DNA from: an uncultured Candidatus Saccharibacteria bacterium
GTDB lineage: Bacteria; Patescibacteriota; Andersenbacteria; UBA10190
Direction: 5' to 3'
Length of the DNA stretch: 64,000 nucleotides
Assembly: GCA_964610055.1 (NCBI GenBank)
Contig: CAZSUC010000001.1
Location: forward strand, 431,912-495,911
Position numbers and translations under genes: made by a program. Positions 3,342 to 56,224 of this stretch are shown piece after piece (the stretch's first letter is position 1; every line of letters begins with the position of its first letter). Under the pieces are notes generated by a model, which was given only the letters and a program-made list of their open reading frames with translations, was not told the origin of the DNA and did no database searches.

Positions 3342-5214
3342 GTACGCAGAAGTCGCTCCGATTGTTCCTCTGCCCGCTCATAGCCGCCAAGCTTATACTT
3401 ACGCTTATCCTGCGCACGAACCCATCTCTCCTCTTTATTCCCGTGTTACCATTTCTCTTGGACCTAAGCATTTAACCGGAGTCATTGTTTCGCAGCACAG
3501 TCATCGTTTAAGTTATCCGACCAAATCATTAGCTCCCCTATCTTCGGTTACCTTAACCGAAAAACAAATTCAATTCGCTAATTGGATTAGTCACACAATG
3601 TTAGGCGGTTTAGGATACACTTTGCGTCTTTTCTTTCCCCCAGCCCTAAAAAAACAATTACCACTACCTCCAGCTAAACATCATAAACCAGTCACCTTAC
3701 CTCGATCCGGAAGAATTGCTAATTGGCCGCCCCAATCGTCTCAACCGAGTTCTATGATGATTGCTGATCCGTTGCAGCGATTACGTCATTTAGCTTGGAT
3801 AGCGGCTCATATTGCCCGGGATGATCAGCAATGTCTCATTCTTTTTCCAGAGAAATGGCAATTAGATCGCGCCGCTGCTATTTTCCAGCCTCTATTTACT
3901 GACCAACTTTTAATTTGGCGAGCCAATACTTCTTCGCGCCAATCTTCTCAAGATTGGCATCGAGTTCAATCCAATGAAATTAAAATTATTCTGGGTACGC
4001 AAAAAAGTCTTTTCCTACCATTCAACCATCTCGGACTTATTATTCTAGAAGATGAGGCCAATTCAGTTCATAAACTTTGGGACGCCTACCCGCGCCTTGA
4101 TAATCGTTTAGCCGTGCTTGAATTAGCACGTATTCATCAGGCTTCTGTGCTGTACAGCGGCGCTTATCCTTCACTAAATCTGTCTTGGCAAATAACATCT
4201 AAGCTGGTGACTCCCATATTGGATCATCCACTTCAGCTCAATCCTTCAATCTACCCACTTACGTTTACTGACCGTGCTGCTAAGCGGTTATTACCGCTTG
4301 AATTCACGCATATTCTATCTGCCTGGTTACGCCAACATGAACGCATCTTTATTTTGCATAATCGCAAAGGTTCTTGGTCAACTATTATTTGTCGTCATTG
4401 TCGTTCTTCACTTAAATGCCCGGTGTGTGGAGTTGTCTTGTCTGTTCATGGTTCAAGTCGCCATTCTCGTCTTTCGTGTCACCAGTGTGGCTATGCTAAT
4501 CCCCTTCCCACAAAATGCCCTACCTGTCATCAAGGCCCCTTGCGTGTTTTTGGCGTTGCTAATGAACGCGCAGCTCAGTTTCTTCAAACTGAACTGAAAA
4601 ATACCAAGATTACTGTTTTAGATCAGACATCTTTGCGTCCCGAAAACATCAAACAATCTTTGTCTGGCTGGAAACGGCGTCATCTTTTTATTGGCACTAC
4701 TGCCGCTTTTTCGATTTTAGCAGAGTTAGGGATTGATCGCAGTGTCTTGCTTATGCCCGAACAATCATTGTTGTATCCTGATTTTCGGAGTGACGAACGT
4801 GTGCTAAGACAAATTATTCGTTTACGTGAATTCAGTCGTTCAAAAGACGTTTTAATTGTTACTCGTTTTAATCGTCTTGTTCGCGATAAACTAGACCTTC
4901 CGCTAGCACAAATTTATCAAAACATTCTGACTGAACGTCGGCGTTTACATTACCCCCCGTTTAATTCAGTTATTAAACTCACTTGGCAAGCGTCAACTCT
5001 TGCCAAAGCACAAACAAAAACAATCGCAGCGCGAGAAAAAATATCAAATTCTCCCTCGCTTATTATCCGTGGACCATTTCAATCCAGCTCTCAACGCTCG
5101 CGTAATGTGGCTGAATCCCATCTCTTATTACTCGGCCAACTTAACGAATTGGTTCAACTCTATCCCTCTCTTAAGCCTGATATAGTTGATATAAATCCAG
5201 AAAGAATTATCTAA
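3310..5214 (+). CDS. priA: primosomal protein N' (PriA)-like, Walker A P-loop absent
   Basis: 634 aa; PriA Cys-rich region CRHCRSSLKCPVCG...CHQCG...CPTCHQG; DExH-like LIILEDEANSVHK; the region expected to hold GxGKT reads MIADPLQRLRHLAWIAAH. Confidence 0.6.
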   Translation: MLWSMKNQRPKYAEVAPIVPLPAHSRQAYTYAYPAHEPISPLYSRVTISLGPKHLTGVIVSQHSHRLSYPTKSLAPLSSVTLTEKQIQFANWISHTMLGGLGYTLRLFFPPALKKQLPLPPAKHHKPVTLPRSGRIANWPPQSSQPSSMMIADPLQRLRHLAWIAAHIARDDQQCLILFPEKWQLDRAAAIFQPLFTDQLLIWRANTSSRQSSQDWHRVQSNEIKIILGTQKSLFLPFNHLGLIILEDEANSVHKLWDAYPRLDNRLAVLELARIHQASVLYSGAYPSLNLSWQITSKLVTPILDHPLQLNPSIYPLTFTDRAAKRLLPLEFTHILSAWLRQHERIFILHNRKGSWSTIICRHCRSSLKCPVCGVVLSVHGSSRHSRLSCHQCGYANPLPTKCPTCHQGPLRVFGVANERAAQFLQTELKNTKITVLDQTSLRPENIKQSLSGWKRRHLFIGTTAAFSILAELGIDRSVLLMPEQSLLYPDFRSDERVLRQIIRLREFSRSKDVLIVTRFNRLVRDKLDLPLAQIYQNILTERRRLHYPPFNSVIKLTWQASTLAKAQTKTIAAREKISNSPSLIIRGPFQSSSQRSRNVAESHLLLLGQLNELVQLYPSLKPDIVDINPERII

Positions 5215-5828
5215 CCAATCGTTTCTTTAACTGTCATACTAGTAATAATCGCTGCCCTTTCTTGTTCGTCTAGCTTCATGCGAATGTAACGAATTGTGCT
5301 TTTAAGCTGCGGAATTAACACATGCTCTAAAGCATTAACGCGTCGTCGAGTTTTTTCAATTTCTTCTGCGAGTAACTGTGCTGTTTTTTCTACCGCTGCT
5401 AATTCTAAGAGTCGAGGCAATACTTTTTGCAAGGCGGCTTGTCCTGCATCTAATTCAGCTGAAGTTTCCCAAACACCATATGTTTGTTTGGTGTCTTGCA
5501 AACTAATTTCAAAATGCGGAATCTTAACTCCCATCACATTTTTTTCACTCACGCCCAAGTCTAATTTTTGAGTTTGTACATGCCGCACCACTTGAACTGC
5601 CTGTGGCTCCATGGCGGCCTCTGCCATCATAAAATGCTTTAACGCCGCAACTAATTCCAAATCAACCGCTTGGCGCAAACTGTGAGCTTGCCGCACAATT
5701 TTCATAAATTCTTGCATTAAGCCATCTCTCTTCTCTTTCAGGAGCTTATGTCCTTTTGCCGCTAAAGCCGCGCGCTTTTTTAAGCGCAGCAGCTCCATGC
5801 GGGTTGGATTTACACGTAGCTGGGACAT
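5211..5828 (-). CDS. atpD: A/V-type ATP synthase subunit D
   Basis: 205 aa; signature N-terminus NPTRMELLRLKKR. Confidence 0.9.
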   Translation of the reverse strand: MSQLRVNPTRMELLRLKKRAALAAKGHKLLKEKRDGLMQEFMKIVRQAHSLRQAVDLELVAALKHFMMAEAAMEPQAVQVVRHVQTQKLDLGVSEKNVMGVKIPHFEISLQDTKQTYGVWETSAELDAGQAALQKVLPRLLELAAVEKTAQLLAEEIEKTRRRVNALEHVLIPQLKSTIRYIRMKLDEQERAAIITSMTVKETIG

Positions 5829-19819: not shown

Positions 19820-20146
19820 CTACTTTGATCTAGGCGAACAAACAAACCAATCTTGGTTCTTCGGGTTTACCCGCTCAAACTCAATTCCATTCCATTCATA
19901 AAGCAAGCAATACCAGGATTCATCAGCATGTAAACTACTCACATCACGAGCAATTACATCATCGCTTAGCTTTTCAAACTTTCGCTCCTCACCATTTAGT
20001 AAAGTGTAATCCGTTACTTCAACCTTAAAGGCAATTTCAATTCCCCCCTTCGCTTCATTTGAGTATATCCCTCCTTTACGGATCATGATGCTGGGTTCTC
20101 CTGTCGACCAATTGAATTTCTCGTCTTTATCCATAGCACTACTCAA
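19820..20146 (-). CDS. hypothetical protein, last gene of TIR operon
   Basis: 108 aa; start overlaps stop of TIR gene (ATGA); no recognisable domain. Confidence 0.45.
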   Translation of the reverse strand: MSSAMDKDEKFNWSTGEPSIMIRKGGIYSNEAKGGIEIAFKVEVTDYTLLNGEERKFEKLSDDVIARDVSSLHADESWYCLLYEWNGIEFERVNPKNQDWFVCSPRSK

Positions 20147-21123
20147 TTACCCTCATATTCACGCTCAATATGCTCAACCAAGTTCTCCCACAACAACTCA
20201 AGTAGCTCAGAGGTAGTCAACAAGACCTTACCAACGCCTACTGGCTTTAGTAAACTCACATCCATCAAGTTAATAACATATGAATCCTTTTCTTGACTCC
20301 ACTCAATTCCACCAAACGCATGCATTGCTTTGCGATCAAAACGCCGATCAGTCCACTGATAGAACGATATGTCATCATCACCAGTCATCCCACCAAGCCA
20401 GATAGCAAGATTGTAAATTTTCTTATTTCCACTTCTAACACGAACAATCCGCTCTCCATTACGATTAACTAACGAAACTTGAATACCTCTATCCTTAAGC
20501 AACTCCCCTCGCTTAACTAGCTCATCGACAAGAGAATCTACAACATAATCTGGGTCACTAGATGGATCATGTTCAATCGTTGGGATCCGCGGCAACCTAA
20601 TATTAACAGCGGGAGACACGGTCTGGGGTACTGACTCAACAACAACTTCACCACTAGGCGGCTGCACTTTCGCTGCTATACTTTGAGCTAACTCCTGAGG
20701 CGTAATTCTATTATTTCGCGCGTCGAGGTACTTAGTAGTTGGGTTTAACTGCTCTGGTAGCTCATCTCCTTGCAGCATAACTGGTAGAATGTAATCTCTC
20801 TTTCCACTTAAAACGCCCTGCGATAGCGCACTCTCTAACTCATGCGTTGTAAATGCCTTCTGTTGATAGATATCAGTAACAAAGATGACACAATAACTAG
20901 CACGACCTTTCCCAAAAATATTTTGTAGATACCCCGGCAAGCTATGGCCCCACATTTCCGTCTCTATATCTGGATCACGATCGTAAAATACAGAAACGCC
21001 TCTCTTCCGTAACTCACTATACACAGCTTCTACATATTCACGATCTTCACCTGCATAAGACAGCGCAACAGAATAAGTCGCTTTCTCTTCATTGGTACTG
21101 CTTTGTTCGTGCTTATTAACCAT
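20143..21123 (-). CDS. TIR-domain protein with ~170-aa C-terminal domain of unknown function
   Basis: N-terminal YSVALSYAGEDREYVEAVYSELRKRGVSVFYD and SYCVIFVTDIYQQKAFTTHELESAL match TIR motifs including the catalytic Glu position. Confidence 0.7.
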   Translation of the reverse strand: MVNKHEQSSTNEEKATYSVALSYAGEDREYVEAVYSELRKRGVSVFYDRDPDIETEMWGHSLPGYLQNIFGKGRASYCVIFVTDIYQQKAFTTHELESALSQGVLSGKRDYILPVMLQGDELPEQLNPTTKYLDARNNRITPQELAQSIAAKVQPPSGEVVVESVPQTVSPAVNIRLPRIPTIEHDPSSDPDYVVDSLVDELVKRGELLKDRGIQVSLVNRNGERIVRVRSGNKKIYNLAIWLGGMTGDDDISFYQWTDRRFDRKAMHAFGGIEWSQEKDSYVINLMDVSLLKPVGVGKVLLTTSELLELLWENLVEHIEREYEGN

Positions 21124-21167: not shown

Positions 21168-22919
21168 TTAAGATGATGTATCGACCGTAATTCCATCTTC
21201 AACCCAAGGGAATTCAAATTCCACATCTATTCTTGCCTTCTTGGGATACTTCTTCAGAAAATTCTCATTTTCATCCACTAGATAGATGGTGCAGTAATCT
21301 GATCCATCGACACGTTTAAGCTTTCGACCATTCAGGACACCCTTCCGCTCCAACGCCTTTCTCGTCGATGGATGAACACTATAGTCATAATTCGTTTGCC
21401 ATTCAGTAAACCAGGTATCCTCGTTATCGCTGTGTAGTGAGGGGATAATGCCTTCCTTAATGTTACGCCAACAGTCAGCGCAGCGAAGTCCATCAAGATT
21501 CCACCATGCTTTACTGCCAGGCATATTCTCACCACAAATACCACAGGTATACATACCACCCTCACTATCTTCTAAAAAGAATCCATCCGGCTCTTTCTCA
21601 AGTCTGCGCTTGCGTGCGTTCTCGATACCTTCAAACTCACCAGACATTTTAGCTAATTGCACCCAGTTGTTGTTGGCATGCTTTCGCTTCATCTCTTCCG
21701 TTATTTTCGCAGCTGGCTTCTTTGGTTGTTCTTCTGTATATAGCTCCATTAAGTCCTCTTCTCGTTCATAGCCACGAATACGTCCAGATAAATATCCGAG
21801 GCGGTAAGAGATATGACCAGACAAGAGTCGCCAGTTTGTATCCTTGAGAGTTTCCTTGATAAGCTGTCGTAACTCATATTCACTGGCGCGGGTACTACGG
21901 TTAGGGTCAGCATCCTGAACACTGAATGGAAGAATGAAATTCATACCATCCTCTGGCTTTCCAAGCGAGAATTCCATGTACTGCGCTTTTTCGAGAGGCT
22001 TAATGAGCTTCTTCTTAAGATCGGCGACCTTAATTTTCTTAAGCTTTGACACTTCAGCATACGCCTGACCCTCATATTTCTCTCGCTCTTCCTTCAGAAC
22101 AACTGAAGCGACTTCAAGTGCTTCTCGTTGATCAAGGGCGGCTTTGCCCTGTTCTTCGGTAAGACAGAATAGGTGACGATATTTTTTAAGTAGTGCCTCA
22201 TCCTTTTTCTTCTCTTTTTCCTTTTCAGCTTCAAATTCTGAGAAGTCATCTATTTCAGTAGCTGAATATCCACATGCTTTACATGCACTTGTAGTAGTAA
22301 CAACATCACCCTTTCTTTTAGATGTTACGGTTATTTCTTTCCCACACTCGGGACATAGGTCTGGCTCTGGCTTCCACTCCTTACCATTCTCAAAGATTGC
22401 TTTTCGTTTTTTGCAATCGGGACAGGCAAAAAAGAACAGCATCTTCGATGGCTTATCATTAATCCCAGTTCGAAGACTCTTAAAGGTGGCGTGCATAAGA
22501 ACACCACACTGACATTGAATATCCTGAGGTGGTGGAGTGTTATCGTATTTATTTTGAAGCTTTTGATCTTTTTCTACCCACTCAGCTATTGTCTTTTCTT
22601 TCTCTTCATAGCGGCCGGTTAGAGTATAGAAGAGTTGATTGTAGAGCATTCGGTTAAGGTGGTTCTTTGTTTGGAGGGGCGTTTCTGTATTTCGAGAGTC
22701 TTTGACCATTTTTTGATACGTTTTCTGGTAGACATCTACTACATCCAGTGCTCGATGGATGGTTATGAGGTCGTAAAGATCAGTGTAGTGTTGCCCCGAC
22801 TTCAAATAGAGAGACTTTTGCATAGCCTCTAGAAGGCCCCTTTCCTTGAGAGCCTTAACCCCATCAGAAGCATGATTGCCAAAGAAATACCCGTAATGAT
22901 AAACGCCTCCTGAATCCAT
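21168..22919 (-). CDS. multi-zinc-ribbon coiled-coil protein of unknown function
   Basis: 583 aa; CxxC pairs QCQCG..CPDCK, CPECG..CKACG, CGICG..CADCW; Lys/Glu-rich coiled coil; alternative start MQKSL at 22823 lies 5 nt after upstream stop. Confidence 0.5.
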   Translation of the reverse strand: MDSGGVYHYGYFFGNHASDGVKALKERGLLEAMQKSLYLKSGQHYTDLYDLITIHRALDVVDVYQKTYQKMVKDSRNTETPLQTKNHLNRMLYNQLFYTLTGRYEEKEKTIAEWVEKDQKLQNKYDNTPPPQDIQCQCGVLMHATFKSLRTGINDKPSKMLFFFACPDCKKRKAIFENGKEWKPEPDLCPECGKEITVTSKRKGDVVTTTSACKACGYSATEIDDFSEFEAEKEKEKKKDEALLKKYRHLFCLTEEQGKAALDQREALEVASVVLKEEREKYEGQAYAEVSKLKKIKVADLKKKLIKPLEKAQYMEFSLGKPEDGMNFILPFSVQDADPNRSTRASEYELRQLIKETLKDTNWRLLSGHISYRLGYLSGRIRGYEREEDLMELYTEEQPKKPAAKITEEMKRKHANNNWVQLAKMSGEFEGIENARKRRLEKEPDGFFLEDSEGGMYTCGICGENMPGSKAWWNLDGLRCADCWRNIKEGIIPSLHSDNEDTWFTEWQTNYDYSVHPSTRKALERKGVLNGRKLKRVDGSDYCTIYLVDENENFLKKYPKKARIDVEFEFPWVEDGITVDTSS

Positions 22920-25384
22920 CGCGGCTTATAAACAAAAACAACTTCATGAGCTTCTCCTGGCACGTAAACTCCTCGAAATATACTATCCGTTCGATAAACA
23001 GGAACTTCATTCCCATCGACATACGCCTTCCATCCTGGGAAAAGCACGTCTCTCATTACAAGAAATCCGTCACCTTCATTCTTCACTTGTACAGCAACGG
23101 TATTGCGATTGTCCTGGACGCCTAGAACTTCACCAGTGGCTGCAAAGTCCATATTTTCTGAAACACTAGCTACTGCAAAGTTGATATCCTGAGAGTCAAT
23201 ATCTAGTAAGATATTTTTCTGTTCTTTACTACTATCTGCAGATGCCTGTACATGCCTAACAAAATGCACTCTAGGAAATGCTTCTTTGTTCTCATAAGTA
23301 CGAATAATCTTATCCCCCAATGGAATTTCTGAGACCTCCTCAAAATCTAGAAGATTATCTGCAAAACGATAAGGTGGGTATAAGCCTATTACATGCGTGA
23401 TAGGGAAACGATTTACCAACGAACGGTTATCTTGCCAAGCTGAACCACTGCCACGATCACCAAGAAATTCTAAATACTTACTCACGTCGTATAGTGGAAG
23501 TGGTCCCGTCCATTGCGCAGTGTTAATTCCAAATCCAGCCGGTGTATAAGGCGCTAATAGTTCATAGCCTTTTATTAGATCATTCGATACTACCAACTGG
23601 AAGGATATGTCAGTCGTGTTATCTCCTGCGATTACAGCTTCACAGTCATCAACGTTCCTACAGGAAAAAAGTTGCCCAGTAGGATTGTACTGATTGCTAT
23701 CAGGGTTTGTATGTATGTATAAACGAGAAGCTTGTTGCTTTTGAGATATATCTGAAGTGATCTCAAAATACATTGCCTGATCCTGAATGTTATCCAATTG
23801 CTCAAAAGAAAACGTACTCCATTCACCATCTCTAATATTTTGAGTAGATATTGAGCTCTTTCTTAGTAAATCACCTCTATCGTCAAATAGCTTCAAGGTA
23901 ATTTCTCCAACCACCGAGGACTCAGAAAGGCGAAGATTAATACCATCAATTTGATTAAAGGGGGAGGAAAAACTTTGCCGATATGCATACTGTGGGACAA
24001 TAGGATTCCAAATCATAATCCCGAAGTTGTTGTGTGGAGCAATTGCCGATAAACGCTCTTTGGAAAAAACTCGTACAAATGAATTTTGACTATTAAAAAA
24101 CTTTGCTACTTCTGGTTCTTGAGTAGCCTGCCAAGACACTTCATCGTGCCATCGCCAAGAAACATAAAAAACAGGAACAATGCTTCCTATAAGAATTATC
24201 ACTGCGAGAACAGTCTTCATTCTTCTGCTATGAGCAAGGTTCACAATCCAGTGAAATCCGATAGCAGAAAGCAAAATTAAACCAATATTAGAAAATAGAA
24301 AGAAACGCGCGGGCGAATTAAAATATCTCCACCCCATATCAACTAACCACACATATACAGCCGAATCTTTTCCGAGGGCTAACACGAAACCAAGATTTGT
24401 AATCACTACAGAAAAAAGCCAAAGGAATCGAAAACTTTTTCTACCAACTAAAAGACCAAACAAAGAGAGAAGTAGCGTTATTGGACCCAAGTAGCTTGAT
24501 AGTTCAGCTTCATTTTTAGGCCCCATATATTCGTCACCATGACCAAACGGATGTGGAATCACTAGCCCCTTTAACGCCTCAATAGGAAAACTAAAATCCA
24601 ATAACTCCTCATCCGTGCTAACACCTTGTGCCCGATCAGTAAAAGGAATGACTTCAACTATTGGCAACCAGTAGAAAGATGTTAATCCAATGACGATGAA
24701 TACACTTATCAGAATCAATAGCGCCCGCTTCCATTTCTTGTAATCAGTGACAAGAAGACACAAAACGAATATCGCTTGTAAAACGAAGATGATGACAGCC
24801 ATCTGAGGATGGCCAACTAATACACAAAGGGAACTACTCAAAATCCAATAAATTAATATACGGACTCCCCCTGTTTTCAAAAACATTTGTAGAAAAAGAA
24901 ATAAAAGTGGCACCCAGGTAAAAGGCAAAATGAGATTAATCATTTCATACTTACCTACAAAGGCTGCCCCTAGTGGCAGCAACAACGCTGCCATCCCGGA
25001 TGCCATAGTCTGAACTTTGTTAAATCTCAAAAAAGAAAAAACACCAATCGCTGCTAATAAGCTGTGAATAAGCATTGAAATATTAAGCGTCCAAACAGCT
25101 GGGAAAAACTGGCGTAAAGCCATATGCAGTGGATAAAAGAAACCTAATTGACCGGTCGCAAGTAATGGGTAGCCACCAGCTAACTCGGGTGACCACAAAG
25201 GCAACTCTCCGGACCTTTGAATGACACCATATAGGTTTTCTAACGCCGTCGTAGTGGTAACGAGGTCGTTATTAAACCACAATCCCCGAAAAACCCACTT
25301 TGTAATAAAGAAAAGGCAGATAATTAAGGCAATAACGCCAAAACTTCTAGTATCAAAATTTAACTGAAAGTTTATTTTCCTCAT
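22829..25384 (-). CDS. YfhO-like polytopic membrane protein (putative GT-C type glycosyltransferase)
   Basis: 851 aa; ~12 TM helices in first ~420 aa then large extracytoplasmic C-terminal domain, the YfhO family architecture. Confidence 0.4.
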   Translation of the reverse strand: MRKINFQLNFDTRSFGVIALIICLFFITKWVFRGLWFNNDLVTTTTALENLYGVIQRSGELPLWSPELAGGYPLLATGQLGFFYPLHMALRQFFPAVWTLNISMLIHSLLAAIGVFSFLRFNKVQTMASGMAALLLPLGAAFVGKYEMINLILPFTWVPLLFLFLQMFLKTGGVRILIYWILSSSLCVLVGHPQMAVIIFVLQAIFVLCLLVTDYKKWKRALLILISVFIVIGLTSFYWLPIVEVIPFTDRAQGVSTDEELLDFSFPIEALKGLVIPHPFGHGDEYMGPKNEAELSSYLGPITLLLSLFGLLVGRKSFRFLWLFSVVITNLGFVLALGKDSAVYVWLVDMGWRYFNSPARFFLFSNIGLILLSAIGFHWIVNLAHSRRMKTVLAVIILIGSIVPVFYVSWRWHDEVSWQATQEPEVAKFFNSQNSFVRVFSKERLSAIAPHNNFGIMIWNPIVPQYAYRQSFSSPFNQIDGINLRLSESSVVGEITLKLFDDRGDLLRKSSISTQNIRDGEWSTFSFEQLDNIQDQAMYFEITSDISQKQQASRLYIHTNPDSNQYNPTGQLFSCRNVDDCEAVIAGDNTTDISFQLVVSNDLIKGYELLAPYTPAGFGINTAQWTGPLPLYDVSKYLEFLGDRGSGSAWQDNRSLVNRFPITHVIGLYPPYRFADNLLDFEEVSEIPLGDKIIRTYENKEAFPRVHFVRHVQASADSSKEQKNILLDIDSQDINFAVASVSENMDFAATGEVLGVQDNRNTVAVQVKNEGDGFLVMRDVLFPGWKAYVDGNEVPVYRTDSIFRGVYVPGEAHEVVFVYKPRWIQEAFIITGISLAIMLLMGLRLSRKGAF

Positions 25385-25530
25385 TTCCTGGTACGGATTT
25401 AGAGGCGAGGGCTATATAAACACAAAGCCCGCCGCCAGCTCGCAATCTTTCGATCGCGCATACCCCTTTCGGGGTATGACCGTACCAGGGCTGCTGAACG
25501 ACGGGTTCAGTATCCTGGTACGGGGTTTCA
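25385..25530 (-). promoter_or_regulatory. structured 5' leader RNA with alternative-pairing elements (candidate translational RNA switch)
   Basis: CCTGGTACGG at 25387-25396 and 25514-25523 and its complement at 25478-25487 (inside GACCGTACCAGG, 25478-25489); perfect hairpins CATACCCC-ttt-CGGGGTATG and CTGAAC-gacgg-GTTCAG; GC-rich vs surroundings; the copy at 25387 abuts the AGGAA-ATG of the downstream gene. Confidence 0.45.
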
Positions 25531-25624
25531 ATGCCATGCCTCGAAAATTGAGGTTTAGGCAAATATTCAGTTATGTATCCATTTTTGCTCTAAACAGGCT
25601 TTAAATCAACTTTTCTAAATACCA

Positions 25625-25652
25625 TTGACGATGAGAGCGTTAAGAGTAAAAT
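25625..25652 (+). promoter_or_regulatory. sigma70-like promoter (TTGACG-16-TAAAAT)
   Basis: TTGACG at 25625-25630, TAAAAT at 25647-25652. Confidence 0.45.
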
Positions 25653-25701
25653 TTACTTAGAAGCAACGCTCGTTTAAAGAATAATAAAAAAGGATACTTC
25701 A

Positions 25702-25758
25702 ATGTCTGCAAAAGACGTAGTTGTATTCCCCTACTCCGACGGAGGCGTGCTCCGATAA
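25702..25758 (+). CDS. 18-codon leader ORF (MSAKDVVVFPYSDGGVLR)
   Basis: ATG with AAGGA RBS 6 nt upstream, between promoter and a strong terminator hairpin. Confidence 0.3.
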   Translation: MSAKDVVVFPYSDGGVLR

Positions 25759-25806
25759 CAAATGTAGAGTAGAGCTGGCAGTTAGCCTCGCGGGCGTAAC
25801 AGCGTA

Positions 25807-25876
25807 GAACTGTTCAGTGAAATCGAAGGTGGTTATTTTAACCATTTATTTTCGATGTCACTGAACAGTTTTTTGT
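25807..25876 (+). terminator. long intrinsic terminator / attenuator hairpin
   Basis: GAACTGTTCAGTGAAATCGAA ... TTCGATGTCACTGAACAGTT (about 20-bp stem, 1 mismatch) followed by TTTTTT. Confidence 0.55.
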
Positions 25877-25947
25877 TGGAGATAAGAAAATAAATAACAC
25901 CTTTGCTATCATCGAGCGTGGCTTTATTTAATCCTTCAAATAAAGTC

Positions 25948-27291
25948 ATGAAAAAGACTCCATACAAAAACCAACAAAATATCGACGTCGAGTACGTCAA
26001 CACAAAGAATCTAAAATCAGCGTCATATAACCCTCGGCATTGGAACGACGACGCAAGGAAGCAGCTCAAAGAGAGTGTGCGGCGATTCGGTCTCGTTGAT
26101 CCGATAATCTGCAATAGTGCTCCTTCTCGGAAAAACACAGTCATTGGTGGGCATTTTCGCTTGGCTGTTGCTAAAGAGCTTGGCTTCAAAGAAGTCCCCG
26201 TCGTTTACGTTAATATCCCTACTCTTGAGCGGGAAAAGGAACTTAATCTTCGACTCAATAAGAATCAAGGTGAATGGGATTTTGACCTATTGGCTGAATT
26301 CGATGAGAAATTACTCGCCGATGTCGGATTTAATTCCGAGGAGCTCGATGAAGTATTTGCTGAAATTGAAACGCCAGAAGAATTCGACCTTGAGAAAGAA
26401 CTTCAAAAACTTGATATCAAAACTGTTGAACTCAAGAAAGGTGACATCGTGCAATTAGGTGACAGTCGGATGCTAGTTGGAGACTCGACTATTGAGGCCG
26501 ATTTCATAAAGCTCATGAATGGTGAACAGGCGGACATGTGTCTGACCGATCCCCCATATTTACTAGATTATTTAAACGCCAAGCGTCATGGCAAAGCAGT
26601 AACAGGATTTGGGGCAAAGCGTGATCGACGGTATCTCGAAACGGATGTTTTACCAGATAACTTCACTGAGCTATGGATGGGTAATATTGCCAAGGTACAA
26701 AAAACAAACTTCAGTATTATCGTCTACGAGAATTGGAAGAATCTGCGCGTTATTTGGGAAGAAATGGAAAAGCACTGGAAAGTTAAGAACATGCTGGTCT
26801 GGCATCTGCCGAATCGCCATCAAGGCTTCTCCGCTAAGCACAAATTCTTCAGCAAGCATGACATCGCAATGGTAGGTGCAAGCAAGAATTCCGATGTCAC
26901 TTACAACCATTCCGAAGAAGCAGATGGTCTTCAAGAAGAATATGAGACTGCTTTGTATGCCATAGCCGGAAAACCACACTGGGAGGGATACAAGAAGGGC
27001 AAGAAAGTGATGCCAACTGACTTCATTGAATTCAATGCTTCTGATGAGAAGCATTCTGGGCAGGGCGTTGTGTTCGGTACCAAGCCCATCGAAATCCTCA
27101 TTCCCTACATCAAGGTACTCACGAAACGTGGCGACTTAATCGTGGAGCCATTCGGAGGATCAGGAAGTACATTGATCGCTGCCACGAAAATGAAGCGACG
27201 CTGCTACATCATGGAAAAATCTCCTGTATACGCGGAAGTGATTCGTAAGCGCTGGGAGAAGCTAACTGGGGAGAAAGGAGTGGTTGTATGA
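25948..27291 (+). CDS. ParB-like nuclease domain / DNA methyltransferase fusion (beta-class N6A or N4C)
   Basis: N-terminal ParB motif GGHFRLAVAKELGFKEVPVVYV; DPPY motif IV (CLTDPPYLL) preceding motif I (VEPFGGSGSTLIAA); ORF track begins at TTG 25903, ATG at 25948 more likely. Confidence 0.8.
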   Translation: MKKTPYKNQQNIDVEYVNTKNLKSASYNPRHWNDDARKQLKESVRRFGLVDPIICNSAPSRKNTVIGGHFRLAVAKELGFKEVPVVYVNIPTLEREKELNLRLNKNQGEWDFDLLAEFDEKLLADVGFNSEELDEVFAEIETPEEFDLEKELQKLDIKTVELKKGDIVQLGDSRMLVGDSTIEADFIKLMNGEQADMCLTDPPYLLDYLNAKRHGKAVTGFGAKRDRRYLETDVLPDNFTELWMGNIAKVQKTNFSIIVYENWKNLRVIWEEMEKHWKVKNMLVWHLPNRHQGFSAKHKFFSKHDIAMVGASKNSDVTYNHSEEADGLQEEYETALYAIAGKPHWEGYKKGKKVMPTDFIEFNASDEKHSGQGVVFGTKPIEILIPYIKVLTKRGDLIVEPFGGSGSTLIAATKMKRRCYIMEKSPVYAEVIRKRWEKLTGEKGVVV

Positions 27292-27722
27292 GCAAGGCAC
27301 TAGCCATAAAGCAGAGTAAGAAAAAAGAAGCATTACTTGAACAGCTCAGGAAAGTACCGATTGTGCAACTTGCCTGCGATCGCACTGACGTAAGTCGAGC
27401 AACGTTCTATCGCTGGAAGAAAAGTGATAAGGATTTTGCCGAAGCCGTTGATGAAGCTCTGCTATCAGGATCTTCGCTTATCAACGACATGGCGGAATCA
27501 AAGCTCATTGCCGCTATCAAAGAGGGCAACATGACTGGGATTATCTATTGGCTGAAACATCATCATCCGGCATATACCACCCGAGTAGAGCTGTCTGTGG
27601 GACCGAAGCAAAACGATGAGCTTACCGCTGAACAGCAGCAAGTAGTTCAAGAAGCGCTAGCAAAAGCAGCCCTTATTGAACAAGGGGAAATTAATTCACT
27701 AAATGAAACCTATGAAAAATAA
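27288..27722 (+). CDS. putative terminase small subunit (HTH)
   Basis: 144 aa; HTH RATFYRWKK; start overlaps methyltransferase stop (ATGA) and its end overlaps the large terminase start. Confidence 0.5.
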   Translation: MSKALAIKQSKKKEALLEQLRKVPIVQLACDRTDVSRATFYRWKKSDKDFAEAVDEALLSGSSLINDMAESKLIAAIKEGNMTGIIYWLKHHHPAYTTRVELSVGPKQNDELTAEQQQVVQEALAKAALIEQGEINSLNETYEK

Positions 27723-29151
27723 TATTCTATCGCCTGAAGTATTAGGTCACTTAATGCGTGACCGCATGGCACGACAAGCAGTAGCCTCTCATAACCATCT
27801 TCTGTTCTTCCATATCTACTTATCCCGATACGTAAAGTACGACACTGCAGAATTTCAACGTAAGCTATTCAAGCTCACCGAGGACTCGAGTATCCGACAT
27901 GCAGCTATCGTTGCATTTCGAGGGTCTGCCAAGACAACCATCATGACGCTTTCATACCCCCTTTGGGCTATCCTCGGTGTTCAGCAGCGTAAATTCGTCA
28001 TGCTTTTAAGCCAGACGCAGGGACAGGCTCAACAAATGCTTGTGAATCTGAAGCGTGAGATTGAGAATAATGAAATATTGCGGAATGACTTCGGTGCTCT
28101 TGAGCACGCAACCGATGAGTGGGGTCGAGAATCACTCGTTATCAAAAAATACGGTGCCAAGATTATGGCGGCTTCGAGCGAAACGAGTGTACGAGGCGTA
28201 CGGTTCGGAGAACACCGACCGGATCTCATCATCTGCGATGACGTTGAAGATTTGCAGTCAACCGCTACCCGAGAGGGACGCAATAAGACATATAACTGGC
28301 TCATGGGAGATATCATCCCAGCTGGAGACCGCAACACCCGAGTTGTTGTTATCGGAAATCTACTGCATGAAGACTCACTCCTCATGCGATTAAAAGAAGA
28401 TATGGATCGTGACCGACTTGATGGAGCCTTTCTGCAATTCCCTCTTTTGGATGAGAATGATAAGCCGCTCTGGCCAGGCAAGTTCCCTGACCAAGAAAGC
28501 ATTGATCGTCTACGTAAGACTGTACCAAGCCTACCAGCCTGGCATCGTGAATACATGCTTAACATTGTTCCAAATCAAGACCAGATTGTGCTTCAAGAGT
28601 GGATTAAATATTACGATAACCTTCCGCCAGAGGAGCGCTACAAAACTGTCGTGGCCGTTGATCTCGCAATCGGACTTGAGAAAAACAATGATTACACAGC
28701 AATCCTAAGTGCTCGCATTTATGGGTATGAAGATAAGATGCAGATATTTATTCTGCCAAATATCATCAACAAACGAATGAGCTTCCCAGACCAGCGCCTT
28801 ACGCTACAATCTGTTGCAGATAGCTTGGGGCATCCCAAGATATACATTGAAGATGTCGCCTATCAAAAATCGTTAATCCAGCAATTGAAAGCCGACGGGT
28901 ACAGTGTTGATGGCGCAAAGGTATTCGGACAAGACAAGTTCTCACGTCTCGAAACCGTAACTCATCTTTTGCAAAACGGTCAGGTGTTCTTCCCTCGAGA
29001 ACGTTCCAAGGAGCTTGTTAATCAGCTAACGGGCTTTGGAATTGAGAAACACGATGACCTAGCAGATGCCTTTTCAATTCTTCTGCAAAAAGCGATCGAG
29101 AATAACCGACGGCGAGGGCGAGTATGGGCACATAAGCCAAAGGGATTCTGA
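27703..29151 (+). CDS. phage terminase large subunit
   Basis: 482 aa; ATPase Walker A-like AFRGSAKTT, Walker B LIICDDVED; C-terminal RNaseH-like nuclease (VAVDLAIG...DYTAI). Confidence 0.8.
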   Translation: MKPMKNNILSPEVLGHLMRDRMARQAVASHNHLLFFHIYLSRYVKYDTAEFQRKLFKLTEDSSIRHAAIVAFRGSAKTTIMTLSYPLWAILGVQQRKFVMLLSQTQGQAQQMLVNLKREIENNEILRNDFGALEHATDEWGRESLVIKKYGAKIMAASSETSVRGVRFGEHRPDLIICDDVEDLQSTATREGRNKTYNWLMGDIIPAGDRNTRVVVIGNLLHEDSLLMRLKEDMDRDRLDGAFLQFPLLDENDKPLWPGKFPDQESIDRLRKTVPSLPAWHREYMLNIVPNQDQIVLQEWIKYYDNLPPEERYKTVVAVDLAIGLEKNNDYTAILSARIYGYEDKMQIFILPNIINKRMSFPDQRLTLQSVADSLGHPKIYIEDVAYQKSLIQQLKADGYSVDGAKVFGQDKFSRLETVTHLLQNGQVFFPRERSKELVNQLTGFGIEKHDDLADAFSILLQKAIENNRRRGRVWAHKPKGF

Positions 29152-54874: not shown

Positions 54875-56224
54875 CTAATTCCAATCGTCTCTCGTTAATA
54901 GTTCTTCTAAAAGAATTCTATTTTTCCATAAAAGTTTTATATCTGCACTCGAAAGCTCCATTTTTTCTGTTTGATCAGTCTGCGATTCTTTTAATTTTTC
55001 TTTAAGCTCTTCACTTATTTCCGCAATCCGTTTTTTAAATTCAGCATTGCCTGAAATTCCTTGCCGGCTCTCAACTATTTGTTCGCTTTGTGTAAATAAA
55101 TCAAATAGCTTCTCATATACTGCTTTCGAAACCGTTTCGTATCTTATTTCCGAGCTAACCGTACCAGGGTTTTTAGTAGCAGTTACAATCTTATTTAGTA
55201 ATCGCAACAAAACCTCGGTGCTATATTCGTTTATTTCCTTCTTGATCTGCGGTGCGGTTTTATTCATAAATTCCTGCTCCAAACTCGTCTCTGGTTTTAC
55301 TAACGGCGTCGGTGCTGACGCTGGTACTGCCGCCGCTTTCGTCTGCTGGCTTTGCCGCTCTATTTCTTTCAATTTTGCCGCATATAACACTGTTTGCCAT
55401 AATCCATTCTTCTGCGTGCGAGTTTCTTTTACATGCCCGACTAATTCATTAACTGGTCGTCCAACTTGAGCAGCTTGTGGCCACACCTGGTTATAATATC
55501 TTTTCGTCTCAACAAACTGAGGAGCCGATGTAGTTTGCGCTAAATATTCGTCCGCTTTTTCCTGCGCATCTGGCTCAGGCTTAAAATTCTCCCCTTTTTC
55601 CGACAAATATTTAATTTGTGCCATTAATTTAACCGCATCTGGTACTTCTTTTTGCTGTAGCAATTTCTTTAATTTTTCCGCTATTATTTGTCCGGACTTG
55701 CCTTGGAATGGAATTCCTATAATCTTGGCGTTTACGCATAAAGCAGCTAGCTTTGTCGGATCAGTCTTCGGATCTTTCATCTGTCTTTTAATTTCCTCAA
55801 CAATTATAGTTCGTGTCTTATTATCCACCTCCAACATTCCTGTTCTTTGCATAACCGCGGCATATCGTGCCAAGGATTCCGGCCTCGCTTGTAAAATACG
55901 CATACCTCGCTTCAATCCTGCTTGAAAAGCAGCCGGCGGATTTTTAATCACAATCCTCATCGTTTTCAAAGCCGCTATCTTCTCCGCAATCCTAACAAAG
56001 CCCTGTTCGTTATATCCAGTTTTGTTTTCTGGACCCACAAAAGGATCATCTCCTTGCACTAGCATGCTCTTCTGTTTGAGTGCTTCCTGTAAATCTGTTT
56101 GTAAACTCTTCCCGACTTCCTTTAGATCATCAGGACTTAAAACTTGCTCGCCAAATATTTCCACTCCATTAGCTAATGATTCTTGCTTCCCAGTATTTTT
56201 CTCGCCGCTATTTTCAACTGACAT
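54875..56224 (-). CDS. hypothetical Lys-rich protein
   Basis: 449-aa ORF with good coding continuity; no recognisable domain. Confidence 0.45.
   Translation of the reverse strand: MSVENSGEKNTGKQESLANGVEIFGEQVLSPDDLKEVGKSLQTDLQEALKQKSMLVQGDDPFVGPENKTGYNEQGFVRIAEKIAALKTMRIVIKNPPAAFQAGLKRGMRILQARPESLARYAAVMQRTGMLEVDNKTRTIIVEEIKRQMKDPKTDPTKLAALCVNAKIIGIPFQGKSGQIIAEKLKKLLQQKEVPDAVKLMAQIKYLSEKGENFKPEPDAQEKADEYLAQTTSAPQFVETKRYYNQVWPQAAQVGRPVNELVGHVKETRTQKNGLWQTVLYAAKLKEIERQSQQTKAAAVPASAPTPLVKPETSLEQEFMNKTAPQIKKEINEYSTEVLLRLLNKIVTATKNPGTVSSEIRYETVSKAVYEKLFDLFTQSEQIVESRQGISGNAEFKKRIAEISEELKEKLKESQTDQTEKMELSSADIKLLWKNRILLEELLTRDDWN

Follow-up and report, generated by a model that had tools for sequence, protein, structure and literature searches.

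A LOOT RNA with a start-proximal copy of its P2 arm: a candidate translational switch in the leader of a YfhO-like/TIR operon

The window, i.e. the whole 64-kb stretch of DNA that was analyzed, is part of a cellular chromosome with a small island. Its cellular genes include those for a V/A-type ATPase, transketolase, RpiB, RF-1, DNA polymerase III delta' and exonuclease VII, and five tRNA genes are dispersed along it. The presence of a terminase and a ParB-methylase had suggested a phage genome; this assignment was rejected on account of 52 other ORFs, which include cellular genes. The island (25903-29151, plus strand) encodes a protein combining ParB_N and an N6-methylase, a small-terminase-like protein and a large terminase, and it is divergent from the operon described below. 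This trio may be what is left of a prophage, or a satellite-like island, and relatives of the terminase in IMG/VR share 36-51% identity. A near-perfect hairpin of about 35 pairs (25800-25878, plus strand; -45.4 kcal/mol for 25785-25905, z = -8.0) precedes the ParB-N6 methylase ORF (25903-27291) at a short distance, within the divergent leader, and gave only sub-threshold matches to miRNA families in Rfam.

The minus strand carries a cluster of four co-oriented ORFs. The first gene (22829..25384) encodes an 851-aa membrane-type protein with a weak, sub-threshold C-terminal YfhO match. It is followed by a 583-aa ORF with no assigned function (21168-22919), a gene encoding a TIR-domain protein (20143-21123) and a fourth ORF (19820-20146). 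The TIR protein has PADLOC matches to PDC-S66, RT-TIR and ThsB, as well as a domain-level NCBIfam match to a retron TIR anti-phage protein. No significant match to known defence systems was found for the YfhO-like protein, and the 583-aa protein gave a marginal LmuB match (E = 0.007). The operon, which is led by the RNA element described here, may be a defence module.

Upstream of the first gene, a putative sigma-70-type promoter was distinguished (25581..25609, minus strand), consisting of TTGATT (25604-25609), a 17-nt spacer and AAAAAT (25581-25586). A promoter scan of the window placed this site under its threshold. It is followed by a GATACATAAC box (25570-25579), at which, judging by its sequence, transcription probably starts. 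At other loci of the same RNA family, TTGAYN/TATAAT-like hexamers are followed by TACAAY 7-15 nt ahead of GCCUAAAC. The region between this box and the first start codon would constitute the 5' leader of the YfhO-like/TIR operon, with a LOOT core inside it.

Screening of the leader against Rfam with Infernal (cmscan) revealed LOOT (RF03000) at 25441-25561 on the minus strand, with 82.9 bits, where the gathering score is 46.4 (E = 8.5e-16), and a full-length match (model positions 1-121 of 121). This is the single LOOT copy of the window. The core of the leader is thus almost certainly a LOOT RNA, and the statement of a sequence-only reading of this DNA, that no known aptamer could be recognized here, has to be corrected, since the structured part belongs to a catalogued family. 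No riboswitch covariance model of Rfam matched within 24800-26200 at E up to 10; apart from LOOT, the search returned only chance-level miRNA and sRNA matches. A blastn comparison of the leader with deposited phages gave no match, and no LOOT was found within 8 kb of the terminase relatives in 12 viral contigs.

LOOT was introduced by a comparative screen (Weinberg et al. 2017, PMC5737381), is termed a metagenome-based RNA (PMC7779021) and is described as comprising about 43 bp in six helices, with covariation (PMC7657543). Its Rfam type is "Gene; sRNA". The literature searched, which for the 2017 paper comprised the main text (where LOOT does not appear), states no function for it. Within the same scope, no description was found of the tail, the anti-tail or the start-proximal copy of the P2 arm, which are presented below.

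The LOOT core (25441..25561) is composed of four hairpins, P1 to P4, all on the minus strand. P1 (25532..25561), a hairpin closed by UGCC/GGCA and placed by alignment to the LOOT model, contains the internal loop CCUAAAC/GCAUGG (25553-25559 and 25534-25539), the columns of which are invariant in 35 LOOTs; we take this loop to resemble the 11-nt GAAA-tetraloop receptor. The basal stem of P2 is formed by arm5 (CCGUACCAGG, 25514..25523) as the 5' strand and arm3 (CCUGGUACGG, 25480..25489) as the 3' strand, and is topped by the apical hairpin CUGAAC-CCGUC-GUUCAG (25494..25510), as indicated by the sequence and the LOOT model. P3 (CAUACCCC-GAAA-GGGGUAUG, 25459..25478) and P4 (CGCGAUC-GAAA-GAUUGCG, 25441..25458) are both capped by GNRA tetraloops. 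Over 35 LOOTs, 93.6% of the cells of P3 are paired, with compensatory changes at 8 of its 9 pairs.

The Rfam model ends at P4. Beyond it lie the tail GCUGGCGGCGGGC (25427..25439), recognized by a complementarity that is specific to each locus; a U-rich tract 3' of the tail (UUUGUGUUUAUAU, 25414..25426), distinguished by its U frequency in 173 loci, which forms the loop of hairpin P5 in the alternative fold; and the anti-tail AGCCCUCGCC (25404..25413), which forms P5 with the tail in MFE structures. The last element is arm5' (25387..25396), a proximal copy of the arm5 10-mer, preceded by UAAAU and followed by AA-AUG, which is supported by a repeat search, folding and a covariance model. The distance from the LOOT core to the downstream AUG is 57 nt, and both have the same orientation.

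The sequence-only reading had drawn attention to this leader as one with a 10-mer near its 5' end, a second copy at the start codon and an exact complement in between. Both copies of CCGUACCAGG are indeed exact on the minus strand (25514-25523 and 25387-25396; CCGTACCAGG in DNA form). The complement exists as well, but its reported position, 25478-25487, was displaced by 2 nt from the true one, 25480-25489. In terms of the LOOT model, the basal stem of P2 consists of the distal 10-mer and its complement, and the proximal 10-mer falls outside the model. The two perfect hairpins of that reading were also recovered (CAUACCCC/GGGGUAUG at 25459-25478 and CUGAAC/GUUCAG at 25494-25510) and correspond to P3 and the tip of P2, respectively. 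Its remark on GC richness holds too, as GC is 0.50 in 25400-25599 vs 0.355-0.435 on the flanks. Folding agrees with a structured leader: the 171-nt RNA reaches -73.5 kcal/mol (z = -6.55), which none of 200 shuffles equalled. The loop-tail pseudoknot, the anti-tail and the part of P1 upstream of 25530 were absent from that reading.

At one mismatch or fewer, the 10-mer has 5 matches in the whole 64-kb window vs 1.26 expected, and three exact matches lie within 137 nt of one another. Only AA separates the proximal copy from the ATG (25384-25382) of the 851-aa ORF. The sequence-only reading had described a ribosome-binding site here that pairing would mask; this is not tenable, as the AGGA is separated from the AUG by a single A (1 nt) and is therefore no real Shine-Dalgarno sequence, and most homologues lack one. 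The stretch that becomes occluded is the 10-12 nt immediately 5' of the AUG. A fourth exact copy of CCGTACCAGG is present at 55159-55168 (plus strand), inside a 449-aa minus-strand ORF (54875..56224). About 0.1 exact copies would be expected in the window by chance; neither a start codon nor a LOOT-like context was found close to this copy, and it is probably a coincidence.

Homologous loci were collected with the pattern GCCTAAAC-N(8-30)-GCATGGC-N(50-80)-CGAAAG. This strict pattern replaced a broader first one (GCCTAAAC...GCATGGC), because the matches of the latter on viral contigs were mostly due to chance, with 2 true LOOTs in the 60 of lowest energy out of 120. The strict pattern gave 14 stretches in viral contigs, roughly 5-8 of them true LOOTs, at least 120 in species-representative genomes and at least 120 in metagenomes; the sample is a subset of the LOOT family, because the pattern demands CGAAAG in P3. 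Among the genome matches listed, 47 of 80 are named as Patescibacteria/CPR lineages, accompanied by a few DPANN archaea or other bins. In total, approximately 200 LOOT loci were compared, mostly from Patescibacteria (CPR) genomes and some from viral contigs, and the Rfam LOOT gathering score was passed by all 17 comparison loci tested. Bins named Bdellovibrionales, Gammaproteobacteria, Acetobacterium, and Nanoarchaeia or Pacearchaeota contain matches as well; mis-binned CPR or phage contigs may account for them, or the host range may truly be broader.

The start-proximal copy of the P2 arm recurs in this sample. In 43 of 209 non-redundant loci, the P2 region shares an exact repeat of at least 10 nt with the downstream 220 nt, compared with 3 of 209 for the upstream flank. 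The longest common substring reached at least 9 nt in 26.8% of loci compared with themselves vs 2.0% of shuffled locus pairs. In RNAduplex comparisons, arm3 bound its own downstream sequence at -16 kcal/mol or better in 18.5% of cases, and the permuted downstream sequences of other loci in 0.6%. In every case, it is the 5' arm of the basal P2 stem that is repeated, and arm5' is situated 56-100 nt past P3, after UAAA(A/U), with an AUG 0-5 nt further on. The sequence of the arm differs greatly, 32 distinct 10-mers being present among 41 copy-bearing loci. The alternative-pairing architecture put forward by the sequence-only reading therefore stands: it recurs at other LOOT loci in differing, co-varying sequences, always adjoining a start codon. 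The thermosensor offered along with it is unlikely, as discussed below. A recurrent, co-varying repeat beside a start codon resembles an expression platform for translational control. As a clean arm5' copy is confined to between roughly a quarter and a third of the LOOT loci, this platform is not universal in the family.

Six loci (L038, L148, L162, L175, L190 and L361) share one arm, CCUACGCGAA, together with its start-proximal copy, and lead unrelated ORFs of 72 to 611 aa, including those for a zinc-ribbon protein and a DNA methylase. Since the same arm stands ahead of six unrelated genes, the copy is a part of the leader and not of the gene. The promoter-LOOT-copy leader behaves as a portable module that is recombined before differing accessory genes. 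Downstream of the leader, one LOOT subfamily has a second promoter-like TATAAT together with a conserved GC-rich sequence (…GCGAUUGCCUGACGGCGUCCGGGUUUACCGGGCUAAACGAGACGGGGCUACGACUUCUGUCAUCAAC…); a near-identical stretch of this kind, which may represent another structured RNA, is common to L127 (~3860-3990), L193 (~5040-5290) and L206 (~2030-2160), in each case beyond the LOOT element.

Repeats with this arrangement might also have arisen at the DNA level, as the target-site duplication of a small mobile element or as sites of a recombinase or invertase. The geometry in the window (direct repeats 127 nt apart, with an inverted copy in between) and the location in an island with phage-derived genes are in keeping with this. 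However, the distal repeat does not mark an edge of the conserved element but follows P1, inside it. The repeat varies by locus, whereas recombinase sites would stay constant, and the occurrence of one arm before different genes shows that it is not target-derived. Furthermore, G.U pairs are frequent, and these can work only if this strand is the RNA; the window also contains a single copy of the element, whereas a MITE would have many near-identical copies. We regard a DNA-level origin of the repeats as highly improbable.

The genes downstream of LOOT were examined across the sample. A co-oriented ORF of at least 50 aa begins within 30-330 nt in 211 of 246 loci, and among ORFs of at least 80 aa, the one closest downstream has the orientation of LOOT at 109 loci and is convergent at 31. 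The 211 downstream proteins fall into 149 sequence clusters, and 89 Pfam families were recognized in 149 proteins. These include N6/N4 and C5 DNA methylases, restriction nucleases, Mrr-type nucleases and zinc-ribbon membrane proteins, as well as trypsin-like proteases, SNase, superinfection immunity and FemAB. No coherent function of the regulated genes was found among the 149 downstream proteins. A cargo of such diversity is atypical of a metabolite riboswitch and gives no hint of the signal.

Every LOOT carries a G-rich tail 3' of P4 that is complementary to the apical part of P2. In 173 loci, the tail binds the apical P2 of its own locus at -25.7 kcal/mol vs -16.5 kcal/mol for permuted combinations (p = 5e-73). 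To evaluate the pairing, 35 diverse LOOTs were aligned with plain MAFFT, with no structure fitting. The 21 proposed apical:tail pairs are 86.1% paired in this alignment, vs 71.9% in shuffled and 45-53% in slid controls, and 17 of them have changes on both sides. Seven core pairs, which in the window join the tail core CGGCGGG (25428-25434) to the P2 loop region CCCGUCG (25499-25505), are kept in 35 of 35 sequences in up to five pair types. Many of these are G.U, which indicates that the functional form is the RNA of this strand. From these sequence comparisons, we read the loop:tail core as a pseudoknot that would belong to the native LOOT fold and is missing from the Rfam model. In the window, the flanks of the tail are complementary to the remainder of the P2 apical hairpin. 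A full 20-bp apical:tail duplex was nevertheless rejected as a native structure: of the states folded for the window, it has the lowest stability (-64.3 kcal/mol), and it would be sterically incompatible with P2, so only the loop:tail core is counted in the native fold. A closing helix "P0", in which the 5' TACAA box would pair with UUUGUG after the tail, was also discarded; a visual inspection had suggested complementarity at some loci, but its energies within loci equal those of permuted pairs (p = 0.14).

A second partner of the tail is found in copy-bearing loci, in which the spacer between the tail and arm5' contains the anti-tail. In 41 such loci, the tail binds its own spacer at -15.3 kcal/mol vs -10.9 kcal/mol for permuted spacers (p = 4e-9). 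The resulting P5 helices are 69-84% paired in alignment A4, a covariance-model-based alignment that was fitted to the structure under test and hence inflates pair counts.

The U-rich tract that follows the tail, with U frequencies of 51-82% at five positions (173 loci), may be a weak terminator tract that adds a transcriptional layer. No canonical intrinsic terminator was found by a terminator scan of the window, and no hairpin lies directly ahead of the tract; the partner of the GC-rich tail lies on the 5' side of P3 and P4, at a distance of more than 60 nt. This bears on the possibility that LOOT is a free-standing, trans-acting sRNA ending near the U-rich tract, in which case the proximal 10-mer would be at most a target site. 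The Rfam type, the U-rich run 3' of the tail, the lack of a function common to the cargo genes and the fact that about two thirds of the loci have no clean arm5' copy are all compatible with an sRNA. Against this, the tract is not directly preceded by a hairpin and the terminator scan was negative. In most loci, LOOT is co-oriented with a start codon about 60-100 nt downstream, which is a fixed relation, and arm5' and the anti-tail nest with the P3 and P4 of LOOT itself in a regular four-way junction in cis. Of the attributes of an sRNA gene, the leader thus has a promoter-like site, but neither a terminator nor independence from the next AUG. We consider an sRNA decidedly unlikely, and the cis arrangement is followed below.

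The arms and the tail define two mutually exclusive folds. Fold A, the LOOT fold, contains P1, P3 and P4; arm5 pairs with arm3 to form P2 and the P2 loop pairs with the tail, while the anti-tail, arm5' and the AUG region are single-stranded. In fold C, arm3 pairs with arm5' and the tail with the anti-tail, giving a four-way junction of alt-P2, P3, P4 and P5, the closing helix of which ends 2 nt short of the AUG. When the 3' halves of the 41 copy-bearing loci are folded, almost all have this junction as their MFE structure. Since MAFFT aligned the 41 3' domains too unevenly at P4 and P5, a covariance model of the four-way junction was built instead from a 20-sequence seed. The window is the top match of this model (96.8 bits) and among the cleanest examples of the complete platform. 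In an unselected alignment of 73-74 LOOT 3' domains, alt-P2 is 76.5% paired and shows compensatory changes at 9 of 10 pairs; at least 8 of the 10 alt-P2 pairs are present in 25 of 74 alignment rows. The overall covariation score is 0.563 vs 0.200 for shuffled data, and none of 500 shuffles reached 0.563; this alignment, too, was fitted to the junction model, a procedure that favours the structure. Four competing helices are present in these leaders, and they are conserved and co-vary.

Constrained folding of the window sequence, with the pseudoknot left out, gave -83.6 kcal/mol for fold A and -79.4 kcal/mol for fold C, and by this model the leader would be close to bistable. The unconstrained MFE structure of the whole leader contains another pairing, between the 5' half of P1 (CCUCAAUUUU, 25543-25553) and the first codons of the ORF (AUGAGGAAAAU, 25371-25384, minus strand), which would likewise mask the start.

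The helix formed by arm3 and arm5' in the window has 10 perfect pairs with an energy of -19.7 kcal/mol. It can sequester the start region, as an RNA thermometer does, and the sequence-only reading had suggested a thermosensor, in which heat would melt arm3:arm5' and free the start codon. Known RNA thermometers, such as the ROSE and fourU types, use short, mismatched helices that melt in the physiological range, whereas this one is perfect, GC-rich and set inside a large conserved fold; in addition, a competing upstream copy, a pseudoknot and conserved tertiary motifs would all be needless in a thermometer. We give this explanation hardly any credence.

A constitutive element that does not switch, for example a 5' stabilizer against RNases or a ribosome-recruiting fold, with one native structure, would make the other pairing a by-product of the repeat. 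It would suit the diversity of the cargo, which speaks against a specific metabolite signal, the use of one leader module before unrelated genes, and the GNRA loops and receptor-like P1, which hint at a rigid fold. On the other hand, compensatory changes have preserved the pairing of arm3 with each of its two partners, and likewise that of the tail, which is hard to explain unless both pairings are used, and a permanent helix 0-5 nt before the AUG would silence the gene. A constitutive role is therefore unlikely in our view.

From the sequence comparisons, we favour, with some reserve, the reading of the leader as a member of the LOOT family acting as a cis translational switch. A cis-regulatory effect, its direction and the existence of a trigger are what we infer here. 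Fold A would be the ON state, with the AUG accessible and the anti-tail and arm5' single-stranded, and fold C the OFF state, since a closing helix by the AUG should block 30S binding. Stabilization of fold A would then turn translation on, and loss of the stabilizer would turn it off. Candidates for the stabilizer are a small ligand, Mg2+-dependent tetraloop-receptor folding, a protein, or the order of co-transcriptional folding. The GAAA loops might dock into the receptor-like CCUAAAC/GCAUGG loop of P1. As P2 comes first in transcription and arm5' has no toehold, the change to fold C may be slow or need a helper.

The leader presents generic riboswitch features, namely a structured, conserved 5' domain and mutually exclusive pairings, one of which occludes the start. 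That LOOT is a ligand-sensing riboswitch class of CPR bacteria is conceivable, although we regard it as rather doubtful. It shares with translational riboswitches having pseudoknotted aptamers a conserved leader, a tetraloop and a receptor-like motif, as well as exclusive helices that decide access to the start. The closest in usage is c-di-GMP-I (GEMM-I), which likewise precedes very diverse, often accessory or phage-borne genes. In contrast to riboswitches, the switching strand of LOOT is an internal stem arm contested by two identical copies, and not the closing P1 helix, and LOOT has no sequence or structure match to any riboswitch family (E up to 10). Similarly tentative is a wider proposal, according to which the sRNA label of LOOT would be wrong and the element would be an orphan riboswitch-like leader that is widespread among Patescibacteria (CPR) and their mobile elements. 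As a sensor with a pseudoknot and many tetraloops, it would respond to a global signal and gate the translation of portable accessory genes by exchanging two helices between the LOOT fold and the four-way junction. The signal might then be a metal ion, a second messenger or a cue from contact with a host, and the gated cargo would be restriction-modification, TIR or other defence, and cell-surface genes, perhaps with transcription also gated at the U-rich tract.

Refolding of mRNA is also a feature of hok/sok-type systems, with their complementary tac, ucb and fbi boxes. As in LOOT leaders, one strand has two complementary partners in one mRNA, and the order of folding or processing decides translation. 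The LOOT leader differs in having no toxin gene, antisense RNA or 3'-end pairing, and its core is a much larger conserved fold. The leader of the window agrees with the LOOT model RF03000 itself over its full length, in P1 with its CCUAAAC/GCAUGG loop, in the long P2 and in the two GAAA-capped hairpins. It differs in that the Rfam model, typed as an sRNA, lacks the tail, the anti-tail and the start-proximal copy of the arm. The object itself is a member of a known family; what appears to be new, as far as the literature searched can tell, is the recurrence of the arm5' copy in the family, the loop-tail pseudoknot and the anti-tail.

LOOT has been catalogued without a function since 2017, and the three-way repeat is a recurrent, co-varying part of this family. 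Together, the repeat and the pseudoknot turn an "unknown sRNA" into a model of a cis translational switch that can be tested by mutation. They also suggest that the Rfam model of LOOT be extended by the tail, the anti-tail and the arm copy, and that its type be reconsidered. CPR bacteria account for a large share of bacterial diversity, have tiny genomes with few known regulators and are almost uncultured. If the model is true, LOOT would be a candidate for a new riboswitch class, and its switch would be among the first regulatory mechanisms described for the CPR, as a portable leader over defence, restriction-modification and surface genes.
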